A stretch of 64,000 nucleotides of DNA from Candidatus Obscuribacteraceae bacterium (GCA_044229845.1 JBGASG010000010.1:32001-96000); one strand, 5' to 3'; shown: positions 9,860-33,128, numbered from the stretch's first letter. Program-made: numbers and translations. Notes: generated by a model from the sequence alone, not told the origin.

Positions 9860-9907
9860 ATTGATATGGTATCAGACACGTTAAATGTTCCAGTATCATT
9901 CACTTTC

Positions 9908-12373: not shown

Positions 12374-12859
12374 CTATTTCACCAGTTCCACAGAAGTGAC
12401 CTTCAACACCCGCACCCCGCCTTTAGTAGCCAAATGACCTTTCACTTTCACACGCTTTGCCACAAAAGGCGCCAGCAAATCTTTGCAGCCGGTGTAGGCT
12501 TTGTGCTTGACGCACAAGTAGAGCAGTCCTTTGTCGTCGACGATACCGGGCGTCACACCACCCATTACGCAAGCAAGCGCGCACGATTGATGGTGAGCCC
12601 CGCGTCCATCACCCATCACTTGCGAGGCATAGCACCATGAGTCTACGACTTCGCCGACCAGTTCAACCGGCACCGCCACCGGTGCCAGATGTCCGGAGGC
12701 ACCGCCTGCGGCTTGCTGCCCACCCGGCTGTGCGGCGGGTTTCCCGGTGGTCGGCACCGCCGGTTTCTTCACTGGATCTGCAGCCAACCCTGGTGTGATA
12801 GGCAGGCAGAGGATGACGAGACAGAAGAGCGAAATACACAACTTTGATCGTTGCGGCAT
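12374..12859 (-). CDS. Secreted hypothetical protein with Cys/His cluster
   Basis: Signal peptide, GEVVDSWCY...HHQSCALACVMGG, beta-rich C-terminus. Confidence 0.75.
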   Translation of the reverse strand: MPQRSKLCISLFCLVILCLPITPGLAADPVKKPAVPTTGKPAAQPGGQQAAGGASGHLAPVAVPVELVGEVVDSWCYASQVMGDGRGAHHQSCALACVMGGVTPGIVDDKGLLYLCVKHKAYTGCKDLLAPFVAKRVKVKGHLATKGGVRVLKVTSVELVK

Positions 12860-12871
12860 ACAAACTTCCTG

Positions 12872-13396
12872 TTAACGGCGGCGCCCGCAGGCAGTCGGCG
12901 TCACGGTCACGGTCTCGAACTGGCTGGCATCAAGCACTTGAGCCTTCTTATCCAGCGTGGCCGCCGAACCCCAGTTGGAGGTAGAGTCTTTCTTGGCGGT
13001 TGCTCCAGCGCCACTGGCTTGAGCGACTGTCGAGCCGGAGCTCAAGCCCGGCTTTGCCTTCTCCAGCGCAGTATAAGCCGCCCAAGAGCGATAACGCACT
13101 TCGGCATCTTTGGAATTATCGTAGTTCCATTTGAATTCCTGCTTGGCACCGGCCCAGTTGCCGATGGCTTGGTAAGCCAGTCCAAGGTAATAGTGAGTGT
13201 AAGGATGATTGCGGTTGGCAGCCGAAACTTTCTTCAGTTTGGCAATCGCCTCCGGATATTTCTTAGCGTTGTAATCGGCGACGGCGCCGTTGAGTTCAGC
13301 AGGACATCCCGCCAGACAGGGGGCGCAGATCAAAACCAGATTGGTCACGCTCAGACAGACAGCCAGTGCCCCACGCAGGGCCGCAGATTTTTTCAT
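12872..13396 (-). CDS. Short TPR protein, possible lipoprotein
   Basis: Signal ending LAGC (lipobox-like), TPR motif HYYLGLAYQAIGNWAGAKQEF. Confidence 0.75.
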   Translation of the reverse strand: MKKSAALRGALAVCLSVTNLVLICAPCLAGCPAELNGAVADYNAKKYPEAIAKLKKVSAANRNHPYTHYYLGLAYQAIGNWAGAKQEFKWNYDNSKDAEVRYRSWAAYTALEKAKPGLSSGSTVAQASGAGATAKKDSTSNWGSAATLDKKAQVLDASQFETVTVTPTACGRRR

Positions 13397-13419
13397 TAGT
13401 GCAATCCTTTCCTATGGAC

Positions 13420-13887
13420 TTAGATGCCCGGGTCGCGACCCAGTTCTTCCTGAGGTCTCGTAGTCGAGAAGGTAAACGGCATATCAGCGCTGAGCCCTGG
13501 AATAGCAACGAAAAAGGGGATGCGCAAGAACGGTTCACAAACCACACGCGTCTGCAGCTGAACAGTCATCGAGTTGTCCGCATGAGTCACCCAGGTCGGG
13601 CCGACATGCGTGACGTCGCTGGAGGCCAGTTTCAAGAAATTGGCAAATGCTGTGCTGGTGAATTCATTGTCCACACGCTGTATCCCCTGACTGGCTTCAG
13701 CAGCGATCGGACGACGCAGGGCTATTTCGCGCAGTTCCGCGTTGTGCAGCAAAAAGCAGAAGCAATAGTTGGCGGCAATGCCGAGCAAGTCGATCAAGGG
13801 AAAGAAGATCAGGAGCAACAGCACAAACAGTGCCGGACCTGTCTCAGTAATGGCGCTGCCCCGACGAGAGCGCAGTCTCAACTTCAT
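13420..13887 (-). CDS. TadE-like pseudopilin
   Basis: RSRRG|SAITETGPALFVLLLLIFFPLIDL (class III-like signal, Glu+5). Confidence 0.8.
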   Translation of the reverse strand: MKLRLRSRRGSAITETGPALFVLLLLIFFPLIDLLGIAANYCFCFLLHNAELREIALRRPIAAEASQGIQRVDNEFTSTAFANFLKLASSDVTHVGPTWVTHADNSMTVQLQTRVVCEPFLRIPFFVAIPGLSADMPFTFSTTRPQEELGRDPGI

Positions 13888-13896
13888 ATTCTCTCC

Positions 13897-15231
13897 TCAG
13901 GCACTGCTGACGGTGCCCTGTTTGCGGCGGCGTAACAGTTGCTTGATTTGCCAGGCTACGTCACGCTTGCTGTTCTCTAGTCTATTGCTAAATCTGAGTG
14001 CCGACAAGACGATTTGGGTGTCCTGGGGCGCCAGATCGAGCGCTTTGCGATAGCACATTGCAGCCGATCCCATGTCGCCGGCCCCCTCAAAGTCACGAGC
14101 CAACCGATACCAGCCTCTGGCCAGTCGCGGATCTTCAAGCAACCCCTTCTCGTAAGTGGCAATTGCTTCCCGCCGCCGCCCCAAACGGTCGAGGACATCG
14201 GCAAGTCCGAAAAAAAGACGAGGTCCCTCAGCCCGCCCGCCCAGGCGACGTCTGGCCATGGCGGCCACATTGGCCGTCTGGGAGGCGTTCAAAAACCGCT
14301 CCAGATAAGCCACACGTTTTTTGACGCGCTCCATGTCTTCTTGCTTGGTGGTCAATGCCATCTGGTAGAGAGCCGGCTCCAGGGCGTCTGCGTAGAAGCC
14401 CTGCGCTTGATAGCTGCGGGACAGCAATTCAGCGATGCCCGGATGGGTGGAGCGCTCTTCATAGGCCTTCTTCAGATAGGGCACCGCCTGACTGGGGTGC
14501 CCCGACAGGAAAAGGGCTTGCCCCTTCATCAAGTTGGCGTAGAAGTGGTCAGGTTTTACTTTCAGGTCATCATCAGCCAGCTTGATAGCGTCCGCATAAC
14601 GGCCTTGATTAATGCGCAACGCGGCGATCATCGACTTGACGCCGGTGACGGCTCGCGGCGAATGCAAAGCCTGATTGAGTTTGTCTTCTGCTTTCTGATT
14701 GCGTCCCTGCGAAAATTCGTAGAGCCCCTGCATATACAGGACTGCCGGATCTTCGGGAAAACGATAAGCCATATAGCCGAGAAGTTTGTATGCGCCGACG
14801 CGATCCTCGGCATCCAATTTGGACTGGAATAGCTCAAGCAAAGCGCCCGGTCTGGTCGGGTCCAGCTCGTCGGCTTTGCGGAACTCGAGTTCAGCCAGAC
14901 TGGCATACCCGGCCATATCGAGGGCTCGCCCGAGGATGAAATGCGCCCGAGCGTTTTTCGGGTCGCGCTCGACCACGTGTCCCAGTTTCTCGATCACTGC
15001 GGTGGTGGCGTTGCCATCCTCGACCTGTTTTTCCAGGGCTGCCAGCTCAGATCCCGGCGCGGCGGCTTCTGTAGCCGCCACCGCATGCGGTGCCAGGGCT
15101 GGTGCAGACCAGGCGCTGGCGGTTTGAAGCGTCACGGATGAGCAGAGGATGAAACCAACTGCCAGAGACAATTTCAAGGTCAGGAGACGATTATTCAGAT
15201 GGAACCGACTTCGGCATGTTGAAGACGACAT
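13897..15231 (-). CDS. Secreted TPR protein with C-terminal DVAWQ motif
   Basis: Signal-like LSLAVGFILCSSVTLQTASA, many TPRs, ends RLENSKRDVAWQIKQLL. Start uncertain. Confidence 0.85.
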   Translation of the reverse strand: MSSSTCRSRFHLNNRLLTLKLSLAVGFILCSSVTLQTASAWSAPALAPHAVAATEAAAPGSELAALEKQVEDGNATTAVIEKLGHVVERDPKNARAHFILGRALDMAGYASLAELEFRKADELDPTRPGALLELFQSKLDAEDRVGAYKLLGYMAYRFPEDPAVLYMQGLYEFSQGRNQKAEDKLNQALHSPRAVTGVKSMIAALRINQGRYADAIKLADDDLKVKPDHFYANLMKGQALFLSGHPSQAVPYLKKAYEERSTHPGIAELLSRSYQAQGFYADALEPALYQMALTTKQEDMERVKKRVAYLERFLNASQTANVAAMARRRLGGRAEGPRLFFGLADVLDRLGRRREAIATYEKGLLEDPRLARGWYRLARDFEGAGDMGSAAMCYRKALDLAPQDTQIVLSALRFSNRLENSKRDVAWQIKQLLRRRKQGTVSSA

Positions 15232-15685
15232 TTAACTGGCAAGCGTACTGAGCGTTGTTGGAGGGGAAGGTGATGATCGTGGTGTTCATGTTTTTGTAGC
15301 GGGCGGTCACCATTCTTTCGGTCGTTTGCCCGACGGTCCAGTGAAAGTTGATCAGCGCTTGCTTGTACCAGCCCAGCACCGCAGCAGCCGCATCGGTGCA
15401 GGCATAGCGCATGGTTATTTCAGCACCGCCATCCTTGCGATAACGCACGTTGCCCCAGAGAAACTGTCCGCCACCAGCCCAGGCCGGGAAGTTGGGCAGA
15501 TCAATGGCTTTTGTCAGTACTTTAAACTCACCGCTGGCCTGCAGCTGATCGATCTGGGTTTTGCCTGCAGTCCGCGGCGCCGGTTGCGTCTGGGTCGGAT
15601 GTTGCTGCTGCGCAGACCCCGGCATTGCCGGCGTCAGCAGCAACACGGTCGCAGTCGCAGTCAGCGTCTGGCGTCTGCTCAACAT
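15191..15685 (-). CDS. Small secreted hypothetical protein (paralog of 30286..30837)
   Basis: ATG 15685 overlaps the end of the upstream gene. Signal peptide, DLPNFP...GQFLWG...YA...VLGWYKQAL...W. Confidence 0.75.
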   Translation of the reverse strand: MLSRRQTLTATATVLLLTPAMPGSAQQQHPTQTQPAPRTAGKTQIDQLQASGEFKVLTKAIDLPNFPAWAGGGQFLWGNVRYRKDGGAEITMRYACTDAAAAVLGWYKQALINFHWTVGQTTERMVTARYKNMNTTIITFPSNNAQYACQLNVVFNMPKSVPSE

Positions 15686-17736
15686 GGGCAGCACCATTGT
15701 CCGCCGCCGCTGGAGCAGTTGCGGAAGCGCAGGACGCCGAGCAGGTTGTTGCTGCCCGAGTGCGGACGCCACTGCGTTCTGTCGAGAGTGGTGGCACCAG
15801 GACCGGCGGGGCAATCCCACGGGTTCGGATAGCCGCCCTCGTTGGGCAGGTTGATCAATCCGCCACCATGGGTGAAGCCTTCCACGTTGGCTTGTCTGGT
15901 TGCATAACCAGGCGTGCCTGGATTCGGGAACGGACCATCGGGAATGACGGAGTTGGGATTGTCGAAGTCGATGTTTTGCGGAACCTGCCAGCCTTGCGGA
16001 TACTGGCTTACCGGTCCCATGGTCAACTGGTGCGTGTTGGGGTTGACGAAGATGATGCGCACTTCGCCGAAAGGCACGCGGCCGTTGGCCAGCAAGGCGT
16101 CGATATCCTGGTCGCGCACCAGCGGATCCATCTGGTGCATGCGCGTGCGCATGTCGGATTGGATGAAGGTGGTGCTGGTGGTCATCTGGTTGAGCAAACC
16201 GCCGAGGGTCGGGTTGGCGTCACCAAACGGAATCTGCGACGGGTTGCTGCGAATGTCGAGCGGGTAGGTCTTCAGTCCCGTGCAGGGATAGTTGCCGAAT
16301 GCCGTGCGGCAGGCAGATCCGCCGAAGTCTACGCCGGCTCTGACTTCCAGAACGAGCGCCTTGAAGCGTTCGATGGCCATCAGGTTGTCCGTCTGTTGCG
16401 GTGGTCCGAAGCGCGACGGCGAGTAGGTGTTGTTGAAGGCCGTCTGCAAGCCGTTGCACGGAGGAGAACCGACGCTCGCCGGCGTGTTGTCGCAGTTGAA
16501 TACCGTGGGGTTGGAGCCGGGTCCGAAGTCATTGACCAGTTGCGTAGCCGAGAAGCTCGATGGTGAGTCAATGAAGTTGCCCTGGCTGAGCCAGTTGGTG
16601 GCTGCCGCTTCGCGACCCGATTGAGTCTGCGGCTGAGCATTGGCGATGTCTTGACGAAGCGCGTTGTAATCGGCGTTTTCCGAAATATATGTGTGTCCGT
16701 TCGACTGAGCGACGTTGACTATGTTCATCAGGGCGACGAACATGTCGGGAGCGCGTCCGGGCGGGCTGGGCAGAGTTTGCACCGGTCCGGAAAGTGACGC
16801 GCCGGCATTGTCTACCAGGATGAAACCGCGAGGGATGGCAGTGCCGTAGTCGAGGTTGAGCGAGCCGACGACGGCGCACGCTCTGGTCAAGATCGAATTG
16901 TTCGTTTGCAGCGTCTCGTTAGCGCGACCGCCTGAACGGAAGGCATTGGGCGGCAGAAGCGGATTGGCGCGAGTGCCGAGTATCGGTGTTTGCGAGACGG
17001 TGGCATGGAAATCATCCAGTGAGACGCCGTGCGGTTGTTCGCCGGGGCGCAGAGGCACTGCGACTGGACGCACCGTGCCGGTGCCGAGGCTGGTGTAGCC
17101 GCGCAGGAAGAGTTTGCCACTCTGGTTGAAAACACTGGAATTGTCGTTGGCGAAATTGAGCCCGTTGGGAATCTGGTTGTTTCTGATGTAGACGTTACTG
17201 GCGGCGTTGCGCTTCATAAACGCATTCTGAGTTTCTCCCTGAACGTCTTGCGTATTGCTATTGCCCAGCATGCGCAGAGCATTCTGCGTCGACACATTCT
17301 GGAAGAAGCCTTTGACGTTGTTGTGTTGCGAGAGGTTCGTAGCGAGCCGGTTGCCGATGCCCGTGTCGCCTTCCAGCATATTGAAAATCGCCTGGGCATT
17401 GGTGCGCGCCTGCGGAGTGCCCTCGGCTTGCGCATTCAGTGCCACCAAGGTCGCTTTGCCGACCAGGCGGTTGAAGGTGAGCAAATTGACTTCGCCGTTG
17501 ACGTCGGTCAGATCACCGAACTCATTCAGTTCGTTGCCGGAAAGCGTAAATCCCGGCGAACGCAAGGCTTGCTTGGCTACGTTGAGGTTGCCGGCATCGG
17601 TGGCTCGTTGCAATTCGGTGCCACCACCGGTAATCATTTGATAGAAGAAGAAAGCGATTCCAAGGAGTACCAGCAGCAATCCGAGCGATGCCACGAAAGC
17701 CAGGGTGCCTCCGATACTTCGACGTCGCGTAGCCAT
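15679..17736 (-). CDS. Large TadG-like pseudopilin / putative pilus-tip adhesin
   Basis: RRRSIG|GTLAFVASLGLLLVLLG, ELQRATDAGNLNVAKQAL. Asn/Gly/Pro/Thr-rich body with several Cys, ends WCCPC. Confidence 0.75.
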   Translation of the reverse strand: MATRRRSIGGTLAFVASLGLLLVLLGIAFFFYQMITGGGTELQRATDAGNLNVAKQALRSPGFTLSGNELNEFGDLTDVNGEVNLLTFNRLVGKATLVALNAQAEGTPQARTNAQAIFNMLEGDTGIGNRLATNLSQHNNVKGFFQNVSTQNALRMLGNSNTQDVQGETQNAFMKRNAASNVYIRNNQIPNGLNFANDNSSVFNQSGKLFLRGYTSLGTGTVRPVAVPLRPGEQPHGVSLDDFHATVSQTPILGTRANPLLPPNAFRSGGRANETLQTNNSILTRACAVVGSLNLDYGTAIPRGFILVDNAGASLSGPVQTLPSPPGRAPDMFVALMNIVNVAQSNGHTYISENADYNALRQDIANAQPQTQSGREAAATNWLSQGNFIDSPSSFSATQLVNDFGPGSNPTVFNCDNTPASVGSPPCNGLQTAFNNTYSPSRFGPPQQTDNLMAIERFKALVLEVRAGVDFGGSACRTAFGNYPCTGLKTYPLDIRSNPSQIPFGDANPTLGGLLNQMTTSTTFIQSDMRTRMHQMDPLVRDQDIDALLANGRVPFGEVRIIFVNPNTHQLTMGPVSQYPQGWQVPQNIDFDNPNSVIPDGPFPNPGTPGYATRQANVEGFTHGGGLINLPNEGGYPNPWDCPAGPGATTLDRTQWRPHSGSNNLLGVLRFRNCSSGGGQWCCPC

Positions 17737-17918
17737 GTAATCGAACCTCAACGAGTAAGAAGGAAAATGAATGAAAGGAAAAGGAAAAGGAGTGTACCGA
17801 ACGAATGAAAGAGCGGACGCGAATCAAGGAAACGCGACCCCAAAGCTGCACACAGTTACCGTTTCGGCTGAAGATTAGCGCGTGATAATCTTGTGTTCTG
17901 GAACATTATCTGCATTTA

Positions 17919-18953
17919 ATGGAGCAAAGTCAAGTGCGATTCAGCGTATTTTCCACCCTGCTCAAGAAGAACGCCGGAATGCGCTTGTTAGCGGCATCGC
18001 TGGCCCTGAGCACGTTGGCATCTTGTAGTATAAAACCGAGATCGCTGGCTCTCCAAGAGCAAGCTGCTCAGGCGCTTAAAGAAGGGAAACCGGTCGTCGC
18101 TAAAGCACTGCTTAATCAGGCGATTGAGACCGCCAATCAGACTGGACAGCCGGCAGATGCGCTGGAGAGTTATCGGCAGGCAGCGATCCTATCTATAGGA
18201 GCGGACCCGACCGGAAAGCGCCCGTCCGAACTGGCCAATCGAGCCGTCGAGCTGGCTGAGCAAAAGTATGGAATCGCCGATCCACGCATCATTCCTTATT
18301 TGAGTTGTGCCGGTCAGGTGGCATATCGGCACCACGACTTCGAAACGGCGGAAAAGTTTTACAGCCGAGCCCTGTCTTTGCATGATGCGGCCCGTCAACC
18401 CGACGACCTGGCGTTTAGCGAAATTCTCGGCGGACTGATTTCAGCCAGTTGCGCCGGAGGCAAGTGCATTGATGCAGAGCCGCTCTACAAAAGGCTGATC
18501 GCGGTGCGCACTCGTGAGCTCGGTGCCGATCACGAACACACTTTGAGCGCCAGTATGATGTACGCCGAAAATTGCGAGCGCCGCAAAAAGTATACGCAAG
18601 CTCGCGAGATTTATATGACCTGCGTGCGTTCGGCGCAAAGCAGAAATCCGCAGCTTTTGCCGGCACTACTGGCGGGCATCGGTCGGCTCTATAATTTGGA
18701 GGGCCGGTACGCAGAAGCGGAGCAAGCACTGACCAGCGCTGCACGCCTGATTGCCACCAACCCTCAGTCACCAGATCGCTATCGAATTTACGGCGAACTT
18801 GCCACCACCAACGCTCACCTCAATCGGCGACCGCAAGCCGAGATGTTCTACAAACTGGCTATCGAAGCGGCTACCCGCGCAACCGGCGGCGAGTCTCCCG
18901 AGACGACCTCTCTGCGCTCGGCCTACGATCGGTTCAAATCACCAGCGAACTGA
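17919..18953 (+). CDS. TPR protein, probable lipoprotein
   Basis: LALSTLASC lipobox-like signal, KLC-like TPRs (LGADHEHTL). Start uncertain. Confidence 0.8.
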   Translation: MEQSQVRFSVFSTLLKKNAGMRLLAASLALSTLASCSIKPRSLALQEQAAQALKEGKPVVAKALLNQAIETANQTGQPADALESYRQAAILSIGADPTGKRPSELANRAVELAEQKYGIADPRIIPYLSCAGQVAYRHHDFETAEKFYSRALSLHDAARQPDDLAFSEILGGLISASCAGGKCIDAEPLYKRLIAVRTRELGADHEHTLSASMMYAENCERRKKYTQAREIYMTCVRSAQSRNPQLLPALLAGIGRLYNLEGRYAEAEQALTSAARLIATNPQSPDRYRIYGELATTNAHLNRRPQAEMFYKLAIEAATRATGGESPETTSLRSAYDRFKSPAN

Positions 18954-18990
18954 TCTAGACTGGCAGCAGCACCGCCGAAGGACTGAGAAA

Positions 18991-19710
18991 ATGAAAACAG
19001 CCCGCCATCGTGTTTCGTTCTTGATTGCCACCACTTGCACTTTGCTGTCCTTTCCTTGTCTCAGCGACTATCTGATTGACGATTTTCTCGGCGGCTGCGC
19101 GCTGGCGGCGCCGGCAAAAGCAGCGGCGCGCGGCGAGTCTTTAGAAGCATGGACCGACAGAATTACGAAACAGGTCAAACAGAACTGGCATCCACCGCAA
19201 TGCAACGTCAGCGAGAACACGATTATGTACTGCGACATCGACGCCAGCGGCAAGATTGTCGGCACTAAGTTGCAAAAGTCTTCCGGAGTGAAGGCTCTGG
19301 ATGAATCAGTCGCCAAAGCGTTCGCCGACACCGGTCAGGTCGCGCCTCCGCCAGTGGCCTTCCCCAAGGGGGTACCGGCGATGACGGTGGAAATCACTTT
19401 CGACTACAAAGTCCAACAACAGCAGGCTCCGCGAGCCGCCACCAAAGCGCCCGCCGCCAAACCGGCAATCGCACCAGCGGCGGCGCAAACGCCCGCCCTG
19501 GATACCACGGTGCCGGCCGCTGATACCACCGCCGCACCGGCGCTAGACATACCGGCCGCATCACCGCCCATGGAGATGCCGCCGGCAGCCGTTCCTGAGA
19601 CTCCCGCCAGCGAGCCGCCTGCCACAACCGCGCCGTCGTCCGAAGAGTCCAGTACGGCTCCACCATCTTCAACACCGGCAGCCGGCGGCGATCCCTTCGA
19701 AGCTAAATGA
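18991..19710 (+). CDS. TonB/TolA C-terminal domain protein with Pro/Ala-rich tail
   Basis: VKQNWHPP...IDASGKI...KSSGVKALDESVAKA...PPPVAFP...VEITFDY. N-terminal signal. Confidence 0.8.
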   Translation: MKTARHRVSFLIATTCTLLSFPCLSDYLIDDFLGGCALAAPAKAAARGESLEAWTDRITKQVKQNWHPPQCNVSENTIMYCDIDASGKIVGTKLQKSSGVKALDESVAKAFADTGQVAPPPVAFPKGVPAMTVEITFDYKVQQQQAPRAATKAPAAKPAIAPAAAQTPALDTTVPAADTTAAPALDIPAASPPMEMPPAAVPETPASEPPATTAPSSEESSTAPPSSTPAAGGDPFEAK

Positions 19711-19724
19711 GTTGATACGGCGCG

Positions 19725-20183
19725 TTATTTGGTCTTCGGCAAGATCACTGTCGGCATGTCGGAAATTGCCTTGTCGTCCACATCAGCAAACTTGACGTTT
19801 TCCTCGATTGATTTATCGAAGATTTGTTTGAGCGTCGTCTGCTTCCTGTCGTAAATCACCAGCCCCCAGTAGGGCTTGAAGATAGAAACATCGGCTTTAA
19901 GTACGCCGGGAGAGGTACGCATTCTCTGGGCCACACGGCGCAGACAGGCGACGCAACTGGCTCCAGTGACTCTGAAATCCGCCCGCTGCAGAGCGGCCGG
20001 AGTCGCCTTACCGGTCGGCGTCGCAGCGCTTTGACCGGCAGCTGTGGACTTTGCCGCCTTGGGCGCTGGTTTGCCAGCAGGCGCCTCCGGTTTGGACGCA
20101 GCGGCTGGTAATGCCAGGACCGAAATTGCCATAGCCATTAAAAGTCCAGTTCTCACAAATACCTCATTTCCCGAATGCCGCAC
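19725..20183 (-). CDS. Secreted heavy-metal-associated (HMA) domain protein
   Basis: Signal peptide, FRVTGASCVACLRRV...PGVLKADVS (HMA CxxC). Confidence 0.8.
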   Translation of the reverse strand: MRHSGNEVFVRTGLLMAMAISVLALPAAASKPEAPAGKPAPKAAKSTAAGQSAATPTGKATPAALQRADFRVTGASCVACLRRVAQRMRTSPGVLKADVSIFKPYWGLVIYDRKQTTLKQIFDKSIEENVKFADVDDKAISDMPTVILPKTK

Positions 20184-20368
20184 CCAGTCAATAAAAGTTA
20201 TAACCGGTCCGAGCCGCCCAGCTATTGTGAAATGGCATTAAGTTGATACAATATTAATGTTTCCAGGAGCTCTCTCCCCTGAACTGGGCATAGAGTTCTT
20301 GGGATTCCAAATAGAACTCCCGACCTCACTTTACTAAAGGCCGATTTCCCTTGAGAGGAAATAGAATC

Positions 20369-20812
20369 ATGTTGCGTCGTCGTCGTACGTCTGGTTCCGC
20401 CATTATGGAAACTGGTCCGGCGCTGTATGTGTTTTTGCTTTTGATCTTTTTCCCGATGGTAGATTTGCTTTTTATGGGCGTCGACTTCTGCGGTTCCTGG
20501 TACATGAACCATCTGGTGGTGCGCGAACTGGCTCTGCGCAAAAAATCCGAGTGGCCAAATGCCATCTCGCAAGTCGTCACTCCGTTCACCAACGCCGGAG
20601 TCGGACAGTTCATGCACATAACCGGCAGCTCTCATGTGCCGATCAATGTCGGCCAGCCGACCGACGGTGAGCGCATGAAAGTGCAGTGCGACAGCACCGT
20701 CACCTGTGCGCCGTTTCTGCAATTACCAATTCCCGGTTCTATTCCTGGACTTTCCGGACCGGTGACTTTCAGATTCTCATCCGAAAGACCTCGAGAGAAC
20801 GACTTAGACTGA
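20369..20812 (+). CDS. TadE-like pseudopilin
   Basis: RRRRTSG|SAIMETGPALYVFLLLIFFPMVDL. Paralog of 13420..13887. Confidence 0.8.
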   Translation: MLRRRRTSGSAIMETGPALYVFLLLIFFPMVDLLFMGVDFCGSWYMNHLVVRELALRKKSEWPNAISQVVTPFTNAGVGQFMHITGSSHVPINVGQPTDGERMKVQCDSTVTCAPFLQLPIPGSIPGLSGPVTFRFSSERPRENDLD

Positions 20813-20813
20813 C

Positions 20814-21251
20814 ATGAAGACATCAAAACGACTCCGACGCGGACAAAGCATAGTTGAGACAGTGGTTGGTATCATTTTTCTGATCCCAATTGTTCTGTTT
20901 CTGCTCGACGTTTCAGTGCTGGTAATGGCCCAGACCGCCAACGACAACCTGGCGAAAAGCGCCGCCCGCGCCGCCGCCAGCGCTACTCCAGGACCGGGAC
21001 AGACTGGCACCTCGTCCGCCGGACAGGCAGCCGCTCAACGCGTACTCAACAACTTTGCCACCTCTTCGATCATTACATCGAAAACAATGCCGACGTTCGA
21101 TTACGATATGAGTACCGGCAACGTCACCGTCGGCACGCAAATCGTCGTCAGACCGCCGGTCGTCTTCCCTGGATTCAGCCAGTTCAACTTCAACGCCCGC
21201 GCCACAGAACCGATTGTTTCTATTCCACCAACGGCATCTAGCGGCAGCTAA
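20814..21251 (+). CDS. TadE-like pseudopilin
   Basis: RLRRG|QSIVETVVGIIFLIPIVLFLLD...LAKSAARAAA. Confidence 0.85.
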   Translation: MKTSKRLRRGQSIVETVVGIIFLIPIVLFLLDVSVLVMAQTANDNLAKSAARAAASATPGPGQTGTSSAGQAAAQRVLNNFATSSIITSKTMPTFDYDMSTGNVTVGTQIVVRPPVVFPGFSQFNFNARATEPIVSIPPTASSGS

Positions 21252-21256
21252 AACAC

Positions 21257-22474
21257 TTGATGCGTTCATTCACCATATATGGTGCCAGACCGATCGCCCT
21301 GGCAACCGTCTGTGTGTGGATGCTTGCCGCAGGTTCGTCCGCTGCGGCGGCGCCAGTGGCGTCCGCCGCAGACATGCAGCAACTGGCAGACGTCGTCAAA
21401 AGCCATCCAGACGATGCGCAGGCTCGTTTGCAGTTGGCGCTGGCACTGGCCAAAAACGGCTTCCGCAGCCTGTCCGCAGATCAATTGCAGGAAGCCGACC
21501 GCATCCAGCCCGGCTTCGTGCGCGAACGATTCCATAGTTTCATGCGGTCCGGACGGCAGTCAGAACAGAGGGACAACTGTAAGTGGATTGTCTTTTACAT
21601 CCTTCGTCAGAACCCCGAAGACGCCGATGCATTGCTGCTTACAGCGACTTCACTCTCCGCCGGGGGACAGGCAGACCTGTCGCGCTCAGTTCTCGAGAAA
21701 GCCATCAGAAATGCACCACGCCATCTCGGGTTGCATGCGGAGTTGGCACGCGTGCTCAACGATCAAAAGCAGTTTGCGCCGGCTTACGCCGCCGCCGCCC
21801 AGGAGCTTGCCATCGACCCAACCAGCGCCCCGGCGCGCTTCGAGTACGCGCGCGCACTGCTGGAACTGGGCAATCAATCACAGTTTGTCAGCGCCACGTT
21901 GCAAGCAGCCTACCAGCAGGATCCTAAGAATCGCGACAAGAGTCTGCTTTTCGCCCGCTGCCTGATCCGGCAGGGGCAATATCAAAAGTGTCTGCCGCCT
22001 TTGCTCTACAACATCTCCGCACTGGCTCCCCCGCAAGAAATAGATGAAACCGACGCACTTCTGGCGACCGTGCTGGACCACCTGCCAGGCAGCTCGATCA
22101 AGTTGCAAGCAGATAAGCTGGCAGCCGGGATACCCGACCCTTTCATGAAAGGCTACTTTCACATGCGCCTGGGAAGCATTTTCGACGGCAAGGCGCAGTA
22201 CGCTCAGGCAAATGAGGAGTATCTGCAAGCCATAGAGACGCATTCGCCATTCGAAGGCAGTGCTTGCTTCCACCTCGCCCACAACCTGGATACAAAATTT
22301 CAGGATCCGCAAAGAGCTCTGCCTTATTACCGCCAAGCCGCCGTCCTCAAACCATACGACAATCAGGTCCAGCGGGTGACCGCACGCACGGAAGACCGCT
22401 GCCGCAACCGTCCCCGCGACGTGGCAGGGCAGTTGAAGTCGTTTTTGTGGCGTAACGTGAACAAAGCCAGGTGA
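21257..22474 (+). CDS. Secreted TPR protein with C-terminal DVAGQ motif
   Basis: Signal peptide, TPRs, ends RCRNRPRDVAGQLKSFL. Confidence 0.85.
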   Translation: MMRSFTIYGARPIALATVCVWMLAAGSSAAAAPVASAADMQQLADVVKSHPDDAQARLQLALALAKNGFRSLSADQLQEADRIQPGFVRERFHSFMRSGRQSEQRDNCKWIVFYILRQNPEDADALLLTATSLSAGGQADLSRSVLEKAIRNAPRHLGLHAELARVLNDQKQFAPAYAAAAQELAIDPTSAPARFEYARALLELGNQSQFVSATLQAAYQQDPKNRDKSLLFARCLIRQGQYQKCLPPLLYNISALAPPQEIDETDALLATVLDHLPGSSIKLQADKLAAGIPDPFMKGYFHMRLGSIFDGKAQYAQANEEYLQAIETHSPFEGSACFHLAHNLDTKFQDPQRALPYYRQAAVLKPYDNQVQRVTARTEDRCRNRPRDVAGQLKSFLWRNVNKAR

Positions 22475-22521
22475 CGATTTCATGGGGATATGATCCTGCA
22501 CGTATCTGTGGGAGGTTTCTC

Positions 22522-24252: not shown

Positions 24253-24337
24253 AGCCCATCTAGTCCGAGAGTGCAGATGCCGCATGGCATCGTGGTTTAG
24301 AGCGGAAAGATAACAGCAAGTCTGGTATCTTTTTGCT

Positions 24338-27253: not shown

Positions 27254-27335
27254 CGGCTCCTCATCCTGGCGGGGAACAGAAACAGCCCGTTCACGTCTTG
27301 CCAGAAGCGAGTTGATTTCTGGATGAGAACAGGCA

Positions 27336-27731
27336 ATGGACGCAAGCTCCTTTTTTTCGACCGCAGGAGAGTTGAAAAGCCTTGTTTCACGTTATTTGGC
27401 GGCAGGAGCTCGCAATACCGCACCGGCGGTGCTGCTTAAGTTGAGCGCGGACGACAACGAACATGTGCGCAGGCGGGTGGCCGAGAATCCCAATACACCG
27501 GGACAGGCGCTGTCTGCGCTGTCACAGGACGACGTAGATGAAGTACGCCTGGCGGTGGCTCTCAATCGCAGAACTCCCCCGCAGGTCCTGCAACAGCTTT
27601 CAGACGACTTAAATCCTGAAGTGCGGTTTGCCATCGCCGCCAACGAGACGATGCCGGACTCCATTCTTCTCGGTCTTTTCCTGGATGCAGATCCCTGGGT
27701 GGCCGACCGGGCAAGCCAGACCTTGAGTTGA
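27336..27731 (+). CDS. Leucine-rich-variant / HEAT-like repeat protein
   Basis: 24-aa repeats LSxDxxxxVRxxVAxNxxTP. Confidence 0.85.
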   Translation: MDASSFFSTAGELKSLVSRYLAAGARNTAPAVLLKLSADDNEHVRRRVAENPNTPGQALSALSQDDVDEVRLAVALNRRTPPQVLQQLSDDLNPEVRFAIAANETMPDSILLGLFLDADPWVADRASQTLS

Positions 27732-27778
27732 TCGACCTTTCTGTATAATTGCCTGCGGAGCACAGATCCGAGGCATGA

Positions 27779-29071
27779 ATGTTGGCAATCAGGTTAATCG
27801 CCGTCGCCGTTCTGGCGTCCATGATTTTTTGTGCCGCAGCTCAGGCGGCGGGGTTGAGCGACGCTGATATCGCGCCTTTCGAGAAGCGTCTCAATTCCAA
27901 ATACCCGCTCAGCGAATCTCAGTTGCAGCAACTGGACGCGCTCATCAAGGCCCATCCGGATGAAGCATATTTGCATTACTTGCTGGCTCGCCATCAGAGG
28001 CGGTTGGGCTATACACAACTCGCCGACGAGACGGTCAATACTGCCCACAGCCGCCCGGACGCCTCCGGTCTCTTCAAAAAACTGATGGAGCAGCAGGTTG
28101 CCAATGCCGAGATCGACCGGGCGCTCAACGTCATGAAATATGCCAATCACTGGCACTCCAACAGCGATATCGGCATTGCCCTCACTGCTTTCTACTTTAA
28201 CGAGGAGGCGCTGGTCGCACCCGCTGACAAACAAGCGGAGTTGAAGCAGAAAGTAACTGTCGAAATTGCCCGCCTGGCATCGCACAAAGAGACCTGGCCG
28301 CCGGGCGTCGGCGGACTGCTGGGACACATAGAGTACACGCAAGGCAATGATGCACGGGCTATCGAATTCGCCGATATCGACTTGCGTAAAGACCAGCACT
28401 TGCAATTGGCCAACCAGGTGAAAGGGTTGGCTCTATTTCAGCAAGGAAACATGAAGGCATCTATACAGCCCCTGTCGGAAGTATTCGCCGCCAATCCCGA
28501 GAACGGGCGCACCACACCATCGTACGCCCAGGCTTTGATTGCCTGCGGACAAGACAAGCAAGCGCTGGCGCCCGCTTTCTATGCACTGACGCAAGCCAGC
28601 GACGCCGCGCAGCTCAAGGTCTTCGAGAAACGCCTGACGCGCCTTCTTTTGCGACTGGACGGACCGTTCGTCGATGCCACCATCAGCGATGTCACTCGCA
28701 GAGCCCGCTGGACGTCGCAGTTTTACACGTTTTATTTCGCACTCGCCGAAGCCTACGAACAGATACATAAGCCGGAGCAGGCACTGCGCTGCTACGCGCT
28801 GGCCTGCTCATACAACAAAGCGCCGACGACCGCGCTGTCCCGCATGGGCAGGCTGCACCAGAACGCCGGACGCTATAAAGAAGCGCACGACTGTTATGCC
28901 CTGTCGGCTCTCTCCAATCAGGAGAATATTTCGGCCAAGTTGGCCTTCAATCGCCTCGCAGACCGCCTCGCCAATCGCGATAATGACGTGGCCTGGCAGC
29001 TGCGCGACTGGCTGCGCCGCACGTTCTGTTTCACTGGAAAACGCGGTGCCCAGTCCTCAACACGTTCTTGA
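27779..29071 (+). CDS. Secreted TPR protein with C-terminal DVAWQ motif
   Basis: Signal peptide (AAAQA), TPRs, RLANRDNDVAWQLRDWL. Confidence 0.85.
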   Translation: MLAIRLIAVAVLASMIFCAAAQAAGLSDADIAPFEKRLNSKYPLSESQLQQLDALIKAHPDEAYLHYLLARHQRRLGYTQLADETVNTAHSRPDASGLFKKLMEQQVANAEIDRALNVMKYANHWHSNSDIGIALTAFYFNEEALVAPADKQAELKQKVTVEIARLASHKETWPPGVGGLLGHIEYTQGNDARAIEFADIDLRKDQHLQLANQVKGLALFQQGNMKASIQPLSEVFAANPENGRTTPSYAQALIACGQDKQALAPAFYALTQASDAAQLKVFEKRLTRLLLRLDGPFVDATISDVTRRARWTSQFYTFYFALAEAYEQIHKPEQALRCYALACSYNKAPTTALSRMGRLHQNAGRYKEAHDCYALSALSNQENISAKLAFNRLADRLANRDNDVAWQLRDWLRRTFCFTGKRGAQSSTRS

Positions 29072-30281
29072 TCTGCCCCGCCACGTCGTTGTCTTGATTT
29101 TGCATGCGTATGTGCAGTCGGTCGCGCATCAAGCACAGCGCCCGATTGTCCGGCTCGAAGAGCAGCGCGTACTCGCAGGCTTGCAGGGCCTGCTGATAAT
29201 GCCCCAGGCGTGCTTCTTCGCGTGCGTACTCCATTTGGGCTTTGACATTGCGCGGCTGATCCTTGACCGCGGCAGTCAGTTCTTCCAGGACTCTTTTGCG
29301 ATCGCCCAGGCGCTGAAACACTCGCGCCAGTCCAATGTGCAAATCGCCGCCCCGATCACCGAAGTGGGCGGCGCGGCTGCCCTCTTCAATTTCACGGCGG
29401 CGCACCGCATCCGGCACCATCCTGTACAGGCGTGCCACAAGTTCCTGACGCTGCACATCTTCAGGTTTGATGGTCAGGTAGTAGAGAGATGTCTTGAACG
29501 CATCTTCCTTCATGCCCAGAGCCATATAGGTTCTGGTCAAATCGCCGGCCGCGCCGCGCTCGTAAGGACGGTTGAAGAACGCCTTCTGCAACGGACGTAA
29601 TGCTTCGGCATAACGGCGCAGGTGATAGAGACAACGCCCGGTAAGAGCTTGGAACTCGGGATCGCGCGGATCAATTGCGGCATCGGCTTCCGCATACCTC
29701 AGCGCTTCTGCATATTTCCCTTCGACCAGCAGTTGCCAGCCGCGTACTCCGTTGATGCCCTTCAGCCTCTGATGGTGCGCCACCGCTTGCAGGTACCAGG
29801 ACCAGCCATTTTCGACAGTCCCCCAGCGGGCTTTCAAAATCTCTTCCAGATTTTTGAGAGAGGGATCCTCCGGAAAGTTGGTGCTGATTTCCAGATACTG
29901 CTTCATTGCCAGTTCCAGATCGCCACTATTCATAGTGGCATGAAACTTCTCCAGACGGGCTTGCGCCGTGGCGACATCCAGGGCTTTAGCCGATCGATAG
30001 GTGTCGGTCGCCAGTTCGAACATGCCGGCGTTCTGCAAAGCCTGAGCGAGAACGAAACGAGCCCTGGCGCTTTGCGGCTGCTGGTCGACGAGTTGGCGGG
30101 CCTGATCTAATAACACGGGCGCAGGCTGTCCACCGCCCTTATCCAGCGTCTGCTCGAGCGCCTGCATTTCAACGTTTTTTTGCGCTTCCGCCTGAGCGCC
30201 CAAAGACGGCACAAATCCCAAGACCTGAATAAGCTGGAAAGCCAGGCAGACAGGCAGAACCGTTGCGACCTTGCGCGACAT
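29031..30281 (-). CDS. Secreted TPR protein with C-terminal DVAGQ motif
   Basis: Signal peptide, TPRs, RMQNQDNDVAGQIKNVL. Confidence 0.85.
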   Translation of the reverse strand: MSRKVATVLPVCLAFQLIQVLGFVPSLGAQAEAQKNVEMQALEQTLDKGGGQPAPVLLDQARQLVDQQPQSARARFVLAQALQNAGMFELATDTYRSAKALDVATAQARLEKFHATMNSGDLELAMKQYLEISTNFPEDPSLKNLEEILKARWGTVENGWSWYLQAVAHHQRLKGINGVRGWQLLVEGKYAEALRYAEADAAIDPRDPEFQALTGRCLYHLRRYAEALRPLQKAFFNRPYERGAAGDLTRTYMALGMKEDAFKTSLYYLTIKPEDVQRQELVARLYRMVPDAVRRREIEEGSRAAHFGDRGGDLHIGLARVFQRLGDRKRVLEELTAAVKDQPRNVKAQMEYAREEARLGHYQQALQACEYALLFEPDNRALCLMRDRLHIRMQNQDNDVAGQIKNVLRTGHRVFQ

Positions 30282-30285
30282 TTAC

Positions 30286-30837
30286 CTACCGGGTCTGCGT
30301 GGTGCCTGACCGATTCAGATTGCTGTTGACGTTTCTGGACGCATTCGCGTCGTCATCTTGAGGTCGGCAGAATTTGTAGGCGATGTTCAAGCGATAGCGA
30401 TAGCCGACCAAATTCATGTTGTCGACAAAAACGTTGACTACGTTGCCATCTTTAGGTCTCATCGCATAGAGGCTGTTGTCGGTTTTTGGGCCCATCTTCC
30501 AACCATATTGCTTGAGCACCATTTCGTACCAGGCAATCACCGACGGTGGCGGCTCGTTGATCGCATACTCAAGGTGAACGGACTTTTGATTGTTCCGTCC
30601 GACTTCCCCTGAGCGTGCATACATGAACTTGCCGCTTGTGAAGTTAGGCAGATTGGGCAGGTCAGGCGGTTGCTGCATACGGCTGTACACAGCTTTGGCG
30701 CTATTTTGCTGGAGGACCTGCGTACCTTTGTCGCGATTCCTGTATTTGTTAGCCTTCGGCTGCTGTTGCGCGGCGCAGGGCAAGGCCAGGGTGACCAGCG
30801 CGATTAGCGCCAAGCCTTCCCGAAATTTCGGACGCAT
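30286..30837 (-). CDS. Small secreted hypothetical protein (paralog of 15191..15685)
   Basis: Signal peptide, DLPNLP...GKFMYA...YA...VIAWYEMVL...W. Confidence 0.8.
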   Translation of the reverse strand: MRPKFREGLALIALVTLALPCAAQQQPKANKYRNRDKGTQVLQQNSAKAVYSRMQQPPDLPNLPNFTSGKFMYARSGEVGRNNQKSVHLEYAINEPPPSVIAWYEMVLKQYGWKMGPKTDNSLYAMRPKDGNVVNVFVDNMNLVGYRYRLNIAYKFCRPQDDDANASRNVNSNLNRSGTTQTR

Positions 30838-30863
30838 ACTTTATCGGTCCTCCGTGCTCTGTT

Positions 30864-33128
30864 TTAGTTGGGGCAGCTGAATTGCGGCGATTGACCGAGG
30901 CTACCACCATTTCTAAAACTTACCACACGGTTTTGCAGTTTTACTTCACCAAGGATATTTCTGTAGCCGCAGCTGGGGGTGATGAGCGCGAGGTCTTCGG
31001 CGCTGCATTCACCAGATTGGCACTGGAACATACGCTCGTGAATACCAGCTTCGTGTCTGGGGTTGATAACTTCCATGGTATTGCCTTCCATCGTGTCGTA
31101 CTGCTGATAGAAGCGCCACTGGTTGTTAGGTCCGCCAGGTGTGCCGTCTGGAGCTTGGTTGCGCCAGCTGACCGGAGTCTGGTTGTTCAGTTGGTGCCCG
31201 AGTCTCGGGGTCGGTCTGCCTTGCGGATCGAGCGTGGTGTAGTCAACATAGAGGAAGTACGGCGTGTCGGAGAGCGGCAAGACGTTTTCGGCGACGTGGT
31301 GAGAGCTGCGACCGTTGCTATTGATCGGCCAACCAACGGCGTCATCGATTTTGTCAGGATCGACGGTCGGGCACATCTGGAACATGCGTTGACGTACAAA
31401 GTCGCGCATCTTGGAAGCGGCAGTATTGCCGTTGCTGCTGTAGGCGCCACTATTGCGTTCTTGAACTGTCGATGCAGCTTGATAAACCAGCTCGCAAAGC
31501 GTGCCGTCTTCGCTGATCTGACATCGTTGCAGGCTGCTGTTCTGTCTCCACGGACGTCCGACACCAGGCTCCAGCGGTTTCCACAGGCGCATGCCGGTGA
31601 CTGCAGGAATGGAGGTGTCGATGCCGCCCGGTGTGTTGAACTGGTCGACGACACGACATTTCACTTGCTCTAGCGCCATCAGGTTGTCTGACGGTCCGGC
31701 TGGTGTGGTGTACGGTCCGTCGCCCGAGAATGCTCTATCAAGAGCACCACTATCGAGCAAGTTACGGCAGGCCGGATCTTCGGATGGGAAGCCCTGACCT
31801 TGGATAGGTTGGTAGGTATTGCGGTCTGTGCATACGTTCGATGGAGCGCCGTTCGTGAGGCGAATGCCTTGCGCATCATTGATTGTGGCTGGGTTGCCGG
31901 AGGTCGTGTAGAGGTCGGTCAGTGGCGGCTGTTGCACGGCTGTCTGGTTAGGGTCGGCAGCCATCGCCCGGTTGTATCGATCCCAGTCTTCCAGAAGACC
32001 GTCTGTGGAAGTCATGCAACCGCCACCGACTTTGACACCGATCGAGGGATCCAGTTCATCATCGAACAGGTTCCACGCGGCCGGGTTGGTGGGATTTGCG
32101 CCAGCACCCAGTCCGGCCGGGTTGAGAATACGGATGTAGCCGTCCGGAATCGCCGGCACGTACTCTTTGGCCGGAGTGGCCCCATTGTTGCCGCCGGCTG
32201 CATCTACAATGCCGACAAGTGCGCAAGCAATGGTATTGAGATTGGTGACGCTCTTCTCTTCAGTGGTTGCAGCAGCGCTGCGGAACGCATTGGGAGGTAT
32301 GCGCACACCGTTGACCGGTATGTTGCGCGCCGCATCAAAGTCGGCTTGCGAAGCCAGACGGGGCTGGTGGCGGGGTTGGACCGGTACGCCGACCACCGGC
32401 ATGTTGATACCGGTGACGTTCATGGCGGAGTAGCCGCGAATATATGTCTGTTGAGTGCGTTGGTCTGTGGTCAGCCAGCCGGCCGGCAACTGGAATCTGG
32501 CGCCGCTCGCCATCACCGGCATTTGACTGCGGTCGGCAGGTGTGGTCACAGGTGAGCGCAAGTTAGTCGCACCAACATCGGTGCCTGCGCGTTGTTCCAT
32601 GTAGGCAGCTGTGACACCGCGCTGGGCGAGGTTGTTGCGGCCGAGCATGCGAGTGGAGTTCTGTCCTGCCAGGTTGGAGAAAAAGCCAGTCAATTGACCG
32701 CCGCCGTTGTTGCCGGCACCCAGATTGGCAGCCAGGTTTTCGCCGATACCATCGTTGCCTTGCAGACGCTGCAGCAATGTGTTGGCGTTGTCGATACCCT
32801 GTTGGTTGCCGTCTGCGGAGGCGTTAATGGCGACCAGAAGCGAACGACCGACCAGGCGGTTGTAGCACTCCAGATCGACGTAGCCGGTGTCCGCGTCGAC
32901 GAGACTCAAAAAGTTTTCGTCATCGGAGCTGCCGCGCAAGCCAAACCCAGGGCTCTTGATCGCTTGTTTGGCGACGTTCAACCCGCCGGAGTCGGTGGCG
33001 TGTTGAGCTTCCCGCGCTCCGCCAAGAATCTTGGCCAACAGGAAGAAACAAGCTCCTATCAAGATCAAGACAAAGGTGCTTATTGCAACCAGGGAAAGAG
33101 TGCCACCACTCTGGTTTCGTAGCGCCAT
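30864..33128 (-). CDS. Large TadG-like pseudopilin / putative pilus-tip adhesin
   Basis: RNQSG|GTLSLVAISTFVLILIG, EAQHATDSGGLNVAKQAI. Paralog of 15679..17736. ATG 33128 with GGAGG upstream. Confidence 0.75.
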   Translation of the reverse strand: MALRNQSGGTLSLVAISTFVLILIGACFFLLAKILGGAREAQHATDSGGLNVAKQAIKSPGFGLRGSSDDENFLSLVDADTGYVDLECYNRLVGRSLLVAINASADGNQQGIDNANTLLQRLQGNDGIGENLAANLGAGNNGGGQLTGFFSNLAGQNSTRMLGRNNLAQRGVTAAYMEQRAGTDVGATNLRSPVTTPADRSQMPVMASGARFQLPAGWLTTDQRTQQTYIRGYSAMNVTGINMPVVGVPVQPRHQPRLASQADFDAARNIPVNGVRIPPNAFRSAAATTEEKSVTNLNTIACALVGIVDAAGGNNGATPAKEYVPAIPDGYIRILNPAGLGAGANPTNPAAWNLFDDELDPSIGVKVGGGCMTSTDGLLEDWDRYNRAMAADPNQTAVQQPPLTDLYTTSGNPATINDAQGIRLTNGAPSNVCTDRNTYQPIQGQGFPSEDPACRNLLDSGALDRAFSGDGPYTTPAGPSDNLMALEQVKCRVVDQFNTPGGIDTSIPAVTGMRLWKPLEPGVGRPWRQNSSLQRCQISEDGTLCELVYQAASTVQERNSGAYSSNGNTAASKMRDFVRQRMFQMCPTVDPDKIDDAVGWPINSNGRSSHHVAENVLPLSDTPYFLYVDYTTLDPQGRPTPRLGHQLNNQTPVSWRNQAPDGTPGGPNNQWRFYQQYDTMEGNTMEVINPRHEAGIHERMFQCQSGECSAEDLALITPSCGYRNILGEVKLQNRVVSFRNGGSLGQSPQFSCPN

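Follow-up and report, generated by a model that had tools for sequence, protein, structure and literature searches.

Within a 64,000-nucleotide stretch of DNA from Candidatus Obscuribacteraceae bacterium (GCA_044229845.1 JBGASG010000010.1:32001-96000), which we refer to in its entirety as the window, there are two copies of a gene cassette, designated A and B, each coding for a large N-terminally anchored protein (big), a small secreted protein (small), and a tetratricopeptide repeat (TPR) protein with a conserved C-terminal helix (TPR). We favor the interpretation, with a probability of roughly 0.55, that these cassettes are Tad minor-pilin "tip" modules of the same kind as the Kil Tips of Myxococcus and that they are found throughout the order Obscuribacterales, with big likely situated at the pilus tip and small, together with TPR in some instances, predicted to be dedicated periplasmic partners.

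Two cassettes with TadG-like large proteins

Both cassettes lie on the minus strand with the same gene order, as described in a first-pass annotation of this region, and all six open reading frames (ORFs) are present in the ORF listing. In cassette A, the 685-residue TadG/KilN-like protein big_A (15679-17736; assigned from the ORF listing, BLASTP, and an AlphaFold2 (AF2) model) is followed by the 164-residue small_A (15191-15685), which has a signal peptide, a linker, and an alpha/beta domain of ∼120 residues, and by TPR_A (13897-15231), a secreted 444-residue TPR protein with the C-terminal helix ...RDVAWQIKQLL.... Cassette B similarly contains the 754-residue big_B (30864-33128), which has the N-terminal module in common with big_A, a different distal region, and the C-terminus ...FSCPN; the secreted 183-residue small_B (30286-30837); and the 416-residue TPR_B (29031-30281), with the tail ...NDVAGQIKNVL.... 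The cassette genes overlap or are separated by no more than 41 nucleotides, in agreement with the tight spacing described previously. The paralogy claimed at each of the three positions is also supported by BLASTP alignments, with E values of 3e-46 for the big proteins (37% identity across the first ∼345 residues, the C-terminal halves remaining unaligned), 4e-14 for the small proteins (26% identity), and 1e-36 for the TPR proteins (29% identity across ∼394 residues, including the tail).

Big_A is composed of a leader with a conserved Gly and a hydrophobic helix, a conserved N-terminal module (N-module) of ∼330 residues, a distal region that is variable and rich in Cys, and, at the C-terminus, ∼35 conserved residues ending in WCCPC. 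Conservation along the family follows the same divisions, with peaks over residues ∼1-330 and the final ∼35 residues and a minimum over residues ∼350-625. The N-terminus contains a basic leader, a nearly invariant Gly, and ∼25 hydrophobic residues followed by the sequence ...ELQxATDxGxLNVAKQ...; among 60 family members R5, G9 and G26 are nearly invariant and G37 is invariant. The short basic leader, conserved Gly, hydrophobic stretch, and long alpha-1 helix are all features of the TadG/KilN class. The distal half is rich in Cys residues throughout the family, and the C-terminal pattern [FWY]-[SC]-x-P-[NDC] is present in 40 of 73 members, with 12 more ending in other -C-P-C or CCP forms.

Neither big_A nor big_B is assigned to a family at the curated thresholds of Pfam or NCBIfam, and the direct matches to PF13400 are weak and in the right place. 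These are 21.3 bits for a further copy of big elsewhere in this genome (on contig C8) and 16.3 bits for big_B, relative to a cut-off of 22.3; big_A has no PF13400 match at E ≤ 0.01, and 5 of the 60 family members match it at E < 0.1. Profile comparisons are more informative. Alignment by hhalign of the 60-sequence big family with a set of ten TadG-like proteins of this genome, five of which pass PF13400 and most of the others match it below the cut-off, gives a probability of 94.7% and an E value of 6e-8 over 134 N-terminal columns, and a hidden Markov model (HMM) of the big family matches four TadG-like paralogues on contig C21 with E values from 6e-7 to 8e-6, three of which pass PF13400. In the ESM Atlas, big_A is placed beside Melainabacteria clusters in which 16-20% of the members have PF13400, and also beside a Bdellovibrionota cluster (score 0.95) in which 84% do so. 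At the level of sequence profiles these comparisons show homology between the N-module and TadG-like proteins of the PF13400 type, which makes the large proteins distant members of the TadG-like group.

An AF2 model of big_A, built from the 60-sequence alignment (pLDDT 84.7, pTM 0.77), opens with a 54-residue helix (residues 4-57) as pilins do, bearing out the earlier expectation of a pilin-type N-terminal helix on the large protein. Five more helices extend to residue 149, beyond which the model is beta-rich up to residue ∼320, with a mixed alpha/beta distal half.

Conserved linkage and the Tad machinery

All of the named relatives of big_A are proteins from metagenome-assembled genomes (MAGs) labeled "Candidatus Obscuribacterales", "Melainabacteria" or "Cyanobacteria bacterium", and are annotated as hypothetical. 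The big_A query has a match in 27 of 41 genomes including its own, and when this is left out there are matches in 23 of 24 genomes of the same family, in all three from the second family of the order, and in none of 13 from six other families of the class. Each genome contains from 2 to 16 matches, and big is thus an expanded, order-level family. A peptide-pattern scan with one genome per species recovered 78 public loci, nearly all of them labeled as Obscuribacterales or Melainabacteria, the exceptions being a few MAGs with odd labels, although absence elsewhere is not established by a scan with one narrow pattern.

Linkage of the three families in other genomes was evaluated in three sets that overlap in their genomes, and the genomes are kin, such that the counts reflect conservation and not independent events. 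A complete big ORF is present at 73 of the public loci, and at 70 of them it is followed by 700 nucleotides of sequence or more. Small is directly downstream of big in 57 of these 70, a TPR-family ORF is next in 35, and a strict regular expression for the TPR tail is matched in 24; one of the two TadE-like pseudopilin types described below (TadE1 and TadE2) is within 4 kb at 36 of the 73. The second set was derived by mapping local HMMs for each cassette position onto 20 stretches from 13 relatives, selected for high-scoring hits and long contigs. Together with the window and the C8 copy this provides 28 distinct big genes, of which 20 have a small gene on the same strand within 1 kb downstream, one more has its small gene on the far side of a locus boundary, and in one the small gene is convergent; nine as scored by script, or ten with the boundary case, run on into TPR. 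In five well-assembled genomes that were searched in their entirety, small is adjacent to 12 of 21 big genes, and small matches at E < 1e-10 lie beside big in 11 of 12 instances as compared to one of six for weaker matches. In the genome described here, both members of the small family and all five ORFs with the tail motif are within the window, with the C8 copy as the one additional big gene. As proposed earlier, the families are linked in other genomes, with small beside big in 57/70 and TPR next in 35/70.

The distances between big proteins are correlated with those between the adjacent small proteins (Mantel r 0.57-0.60, a value reached by none of 2000 permutations), which argues that the pairs are inherited as units. 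In a tree of N-modules the TPR-bearing cassettes cluster together: all six members of the cassette A clade have TPR (support 83/86) and big_B pairs with a TPR-bearing relative (90/74), and an 11-row clade (100/98) has none scored with TPR and has small in eight of its rows. The conserved core unit is big plus small, with TPR confined to certain clades. There is also a short form of big (524-580 residues, the type to which the C8 copy belongs) that is usually without small and follows TadE1 and TadE2 on the same strand, as in the classical tadE-tadF-tadG order. One relative has three big genes whose immediate downstream neighbor is not small but an extended TadE2-type gene (182-185 residues), at loci L029 (G010:C7:610954-616487) and L032 (G010:C4:400442-402973), and this arrangement corresponds to a derived sub-clade in the N-module tree.

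Alignment of 28 sequences from the TadE1 and TadE2 subfamilies shows an invariant Glu (E15) and, five residues upstream, a Gly (G10) kept in at least 90%. This G-x4-E is the class III (Flp-type) prepilin signature, and both subfamilies have the prepilin-peptidase motif of Gly at -1 and Glu at +5 with a hydrophobic helix. The TadE2 protein in the window matches Pfam TadE (PF07811) with 19.2-20.6 bits (cut-off 22.9), and 5 of the 28 TadE-like sequences match at E < 0.1, one being a reference TadE from contig C22. TadE1 has no family in Pfam or NCBIfam scans, and a search of PDB sequences with the TadE profile gives no matches at E ≤ 1.

As the first-pass annotation had noted, the window contains no Flp, ATPase, TadB/C, or prepilin peptidase gene: profile searches return no T2SSE, T2SSF, or Peptidase_A24 match over the curated cut-offs and no Flp_Fap match at E ≤ 0.1, and the sole machine-like item is a sub-threshold T2SSE match (19.9 bits) at ∼51236-51550. 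The prediction that the machine is encoded elsewhere in the genome proved correct. Contig C19 encodes CpaB (TIGR03177; 156 bits, cut-off 71), a receiver-ParA TadZ-like protein, a 535-residue CpaF-type ATPase (PF00437; 208.9 bits), TadB and TadC as two ∼310-residue proteins with a single T2SSF domain each, and a 195-residue TadV prepilin peptidase (Peptidase_A24). A compact second Tad locus on C22 contains a 70-residue Flp-like gene, TadE (PF07811; 52.6 bits), and CpaB-like, TadG-like, ParA-like, ATPase, TadB and TadC genes. Two secretins are encoded on C1, and on C16 there are genes for a third ATPase of the T2SSE family and for a prepilin peptidase. On the minus strand of C18 (176759-177757) there are three tandem, near-identical genes for proteins of ∼64-70 residues with a G-x4-EY signature and a hydrophobic stretch; their Flp_Fap score of 18 bits is below the cut-off, and the motif makes these genes candidates to encode the major Flp pilin that the Tad/Cpa machine would use. 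These findings show that the genome holds complete Tad/Cpa gene sets, with the Flp pilins recognized by their G-x4-EY motif only.

Close orthologues of CpaB (42-60% identity) are found in all 24 and all three genomes of the two families of the order, and only distant ones (28-32% identity) in 4 of 13 other genomes of the class. The range of close CpaB orthologues matches that of the big family, which is compatible with the two working together. We note that three CpaB orthologues each contain one in-frame TAA codon, two in genomes of the second family (G025:C90:27619-28614 and G027:C300:10785-11783) and one in another genome (G015:C231:23271-24041), which may reflect an error in sequencing, a pseudogene, or a gene that is split.

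These data bear on the possibility that the cassettes have nothing to do with Tad pili and constitute some other envelope system, for instance an adhesin that is anchored in the membrane and has export helpers of its own, in which the TadE neighbors and the Tad-like N-terminus would be coincidental or ancestral remnants. Such a system would account for the lack of machine genes in the window and for the weak Pfam signal, but we regard it as very unlikely in light of the hhalign link to PF13400-positive proteins, the recurrence of TadE1/2 within 4 kb at about half of the public loci, and the range common to big and the CpaB machine.

Putative partners of the large protein

The small proteins have a signal peptide, a low-complexity linker, and a domain of ∼120 residues with conserved L-P-x-L-P-x-Y-x-G and W-Y...W motifs. 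There are no sequence matches in Pfam or NCBIfam, and a profile search of the PDB gives chance-level matches only (E ≥ 0.57). An exhaustive profile search nonetheless reveals a large family, with 1626 clusters at 50% identity (E ≤ 0.001), or 523 at E ≤ 1e-10. The best 150 of the 1626 clusters are all 126-210 residues long with no fused form among the matches listed, and the few named members are Melainabacteria-type MAG proteins. In the ESM Atlas the best score for small_A is 0.85, and only unnamed clusters are retrieved.

An AF2 model of small_A (115 sequences; pLDDT 84.4, pTM 0.71) contains a beta-beta-alpha-beta4 sandwich at residues 74-157, with a short helix and a strand ahead of it. Among solved structures the best match in VIA, a tool that states its usual best for a query as Z 7-8, is the periplasmic protein PA1624 (6td9_B) with Z 9.9 and a root-mean-square deviation of 3.5 over 103 of the ∼120 domain residues; further matches, which are within the background, are to DcrB (7.4), SciW (7.2), TiME (7.0), BamC (6.4), Mog1 (5.4), and PsbP (5.2), with the PknH ectodomain also among those below PA1624 (range 5.2-7.4). 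Foldseek comparison with the PDB gives a best E value of 0.016 and nothing at E ≤ 0.001. As modeled, small would belong to a fold class of periplasmic modules that bind proteins, and this suggests a role as a partner; the text describing PA1624 itself presents a two-domain protein with no known function (PMC7716261).

An alternative is that small is not a chaperone and instead is secreted or presented at the surface as cargo, or serves as a fourth subunit of the tip, carried by big with TPR as its periplasmic holder. In favor of this, the linkage of small to big is strict and the two diverge together, the fold of small is stable and independent, and the family to which it belongs is large. However, the N-terminus of small is an ordinary signal peptide and not pilin-type, and no similarity to enzymes or toxins is seen in Pfam, NCBIfam, or the PDB; we therefore think that it is quite unlikely to be cargo or a tip subunit, and prefer the interpretation of small as a dedicated partner of a tip protein.

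The tailed TPR proteins all have a signal peptide and generic TPR matches. Twelve cassette TPRs align end to end, with the tail R-L-x-x-R-x-x-N-x-x-x-D-[VL]-A-[WFG]-[RQ]-[LI]-[KR], in which D424 is invariant and R413, R417 and A426 are kept in at least 90%. We also considered whether these could be pilotins of the PilW/Tgl type, and this was rejected on score: TPR_A has 43.7 bits with TIGR02521 (PilW; cut-off 154) and 31.9 bits with NF033762 (Tgl; cut-off 225), and TPR_B has 20.4 and 18.3 bits respectively. The resemblance is generic TPR similarity only; no TadD model was among those compared.

We envisage that big would be displayed as a TadG/KilN-like protein at the tip of a Tad/Cpa pilus made by machinery encoded elsewhere, and that TadE1, TadE2 and big would form a Kil-Tip-like bundle via their N-terminal helices, exposing the variable and presumably disulfide-rich distal half of big for adhesion or for recognition of prey or host. 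Small, with its modeled Mog1/PsbP/DcrB-like fold, and TPR, through either the TPR groove or its C-terminal helix, may retain or accompany the distal domain while it is in the periplasm and not yet assembled; alternatively, both might ride along as extra tip subunits. A bolder version is that the Obscuribacterales possess an arsenal of swappable Tad tips, each long tip having a private Mog1/PsbP-like escort and sometimes a tailed TPR with a docking helix, such that these would represent a new class of tip maturation or loading factors. We view this as speculative and somewhat unlikely in its full form, and if true it would suggest that members of this order live as contact-dependent predators or attached to hosts.

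The genes surrounding the cassettes include related modules. As reported previously, cassette A runs on into a TadE-like gene, which codes for a 155-residue TadE1-type pseudopilin with the G-x4-E prepilin motif (13420-13887, minus strand); it is followed on the same strand by genes for a 174-residue secreted protein with one or two TPR motifs (12872-13396) and a 161-residue Cys-rich secreted protein (12374-12859), with gaps of 9-23 nucleotides. By its layout this looks like a single six-gene operon; RNA folding at the 3′ end of cassette A is no better than for shuffled sequence (z 0.21). The 161-residue protein has no family match in Pfam or NCBIfam scans, and is found with 42-66% identity beside an A-type cassette in at least four relatives (L018-L021). 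Both of these secreted proteins are kept at A-type loci in relatives, where there is also a convergent TadE2-TadE1 pair.

On the plus strand, a TadE-TadE-TPR module is present as described earlier, consisting of a 153-residue TadE1-type pseudopilin (20351-20812), a 145-residue TadE2-type pseudopilin with a weak match to Pfam TadE (20814-21251), and TPR_C (21257-22474), a 405-residue tailed TPR (...RDVAGQLKSFL...). The previously described divergent pair is present at 8930-12361, and includes big841 (9836-12361, plus strand), a member of a second TadG-like family with an uncertain start codon, and TPR309 (8930-9859, minus strand), a secreted TPR with the variant tail ...NNVALRIRTGL.... Big841 does not align with big_A by BLASTP, and the two families are linked at the profile level only. 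Six more copies of the big841 family are present in the genome, five on C21 (75057-119151), of which three pass PF13400, and one on C19 (245620-248400), and the divergent pair recurs in a relative (L026:15748-19186). Because both TPR309 and its orthologue in that relative have a variant of the cassette TPR tail, tailed TPRs accompany both TadG-like families. Two features are additional to the earlier account: a fifth tailed TPR, TPR_D (27779-29071, plus strand; 430 residues, ...NDVAWQLRDWL...), which is convergent with TPR_B such that their 3′ ends overlap by 41 nucleotides (29031-29071), and, outside the span described earlier, a further TadE1-type pseudopilin gene (2265-2834, minus strand; 189 residues). 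More TadE-like/TadG-like gene sets are located at C6:155580-160390 and C3:168162-170319, with PF13400 scores for their TadG-like proteins of 29.0 and 26.3 bits, and there are therefore many minor-pilin sets in this genome beyond the window. We also considered whether the region is a recent mobile island, and judge this to be unlikely because the GC content is even (0.54-0.59) and housekeeping genes (purA-like, polA, dnaJ-like, and a gene for a DNA polymerase III delta-type subunit) are interspersed among the cassettes.

Several observations weigh against the cassettes being tip modules. Neither big_A nor big_B reaches the PF13400 threshold, and the big_A model is without a convincing match among solved structures. 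Foldseek comparison with the PDB gives nothing at E ≤ 0.001, the big profile has no matches to PDB sequences at E ≤ 1, and VIA finds nothing at Z ≥ 8 (best Z 5.3), although all 685 residues were searched as a whole and residues ∼300-685 were thus barely probed. The 50 best VIA entries include seven type IV (minor) pilins or GspK (PilX, PilV, TTHA1222, PilB, P1 pilin, PilE, and GspK), which match residues ∼27-295 with Z values of 3.4-4.1, which are below noise. Cassettes A and B are not directly beside a TadE1-TadE2 pair in the window, with A having TadE1 alone and the pair lying 2.6 kb away; the modeled fold class of small says nothing specific about its function; and the linkage counts, as noted above, come from kindred genomes. 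Lastly, the Gly is retained in the big proteins but position +5 is occupied by Leu or Phe and not by Glu, and the classical TadG of Aggregatibacter is uncleaved and remains in the membrane. The tip-most pseudopilin of the type II secretion system (T2SS), GspK, likewise lacks the Glu at +5, and by this likeness its absence would be expected of a first, tip-most subunit.

The same observations raise the question as to whether the big proteins could be bitopic inner-membrane proteins and not fibre subunits, forming with small and TPR a scaffold in the periplasm, or a platform on which the Tad machine or another envelope complex is assembled. The lack of Glu at +5 after the conserved Gly would fit well with such a scaffold, as would the lack of pilin fold matches above noise and the periplasmic location of both TPR and small indicated by their signal peptides, and PF13400 proteins do include non-cleaved TadG. 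We nevertheless consider a scaffold to be unlikely. With as many as 16 matches per genome and a variable, Cys-rich distal half, big is ill-suited to being a fixed part of one machine, and the short forms are in a tadE-tadF-tadG-like order as in the Kil Tips, according to the main text describing these (PMC12075869).

Comparison with known tip systems

To our knowledge, the small and tailed TPR families appear in no scheme of Tad pili, type IV pili, or the T2SS. The cassettes thus add two tightly linked families, and for small alone there are more than 1,600 metagenome clusters at 50% identity without annotation. If small and TPR serve as escorts specific to the tip, type IV filament tip subunits would have in them their first dedicated chaperones, and it would become possible to predict from them which tips are active. 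For recognition of prey, host, or surfaces, the candidates are the variable distal domains of big. Tad pilus Tips were defined only in 2025, for Myxococcus and a few other bacteria (Herrou et al. 2025, main text; PMC12075869), and our interpretation would extend a similar repertoire of minor pilins, at many copies per genome, to the whole of an uncultured, non-photosynthetic order related to the cyanobacteria. A literature search found no paper on Tad systems in Obscuribacterales, and nothing of relevance on chaperones for TadG minor pilins.

The cassettes and their proteins resemble several known systems. Small_A is similar to PA1624 and to periplasmic domains of the Mog1/PsbP/DcrB/BamC type in fold only, and has no sequence similarity to PA1624. 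Big resembles T2SS GspK, which is part of a complex with GspI and GspJ (PDB 3ci0), in being the largest, putatively tip-located subunit without a Glu at +5; however, there is no sequence relationship, the secretion system is different, and structural comparison of 3ci0_K with big_A gives Z 3.4 over 97 aligned residues, which is below noise. A further likeness is with the TadE, TadF and TadG proteins of classical tad loci (PF07811, PF16964, and PF13400), seen in the G-x4-E of the pseudopilins, in the Tad-type N-terminal segment of big, and in the short big forms that follow TadE1 and TadE2 in the same orientation. The cassettes differ from these loci in that most members are below Pfam thresholds, the genes are outside of a tad operon, there are many copies per genome, and the long forms have the additional small and TPR genes.

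The closest parallel is with the Kil Tips of Myxococcus xanthus. As described in the main text of Herrou et al. (PMC12075869), Myxococcus has four paralogous sets of the TadE/F/G-like proteins KilL, KilM and KilN, which are predicted to form spearhead-shaped heterotrimers via their N-terminal helices; KilN is large and exposes a variable disulfide-rich domain without a PDB homologue, combinations of the sets are genetically required to kill different prey, and similar Tips are proposed in Bdellovibrio, Bradymonas, and some pathogens. The first-pass annotation knew of no description of such a cassette, and this needs revision to the extent that interchangeable Tad minor-pilin Tips have now been published, although the small and tailed TPR components have no counterpart in that main text. 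The words TPR, tetratricopeptide, chaperone, TadD, Cyanobacteria and Melainabacteria are absent from it, while its supplementary tables could still list cyanobacterial hits. The Obscuribacterales cassettes differ from the Kil Tips in their lineage, in having a link to PF13400 that is visible by profile methods only, and in the addition of the putatively Mog1/PsbP/DcrB-like small protein and the tailed TPR, and for them a heterotrimer and a role in predation are putative. The two systems nonetheless have much in common: several paralogous minor-pilin sets scattered away from the machine genes, two small TadE/F-like pseudopilins with the machine encoded elsewhere, and a large TadG-like protein that has an N-terminal helix of the pilin type and a variable distal domain, which is Cys-rich in the Obscuribacterales and, by the account of the same main text, disulfide-rich in the Kil Tips.

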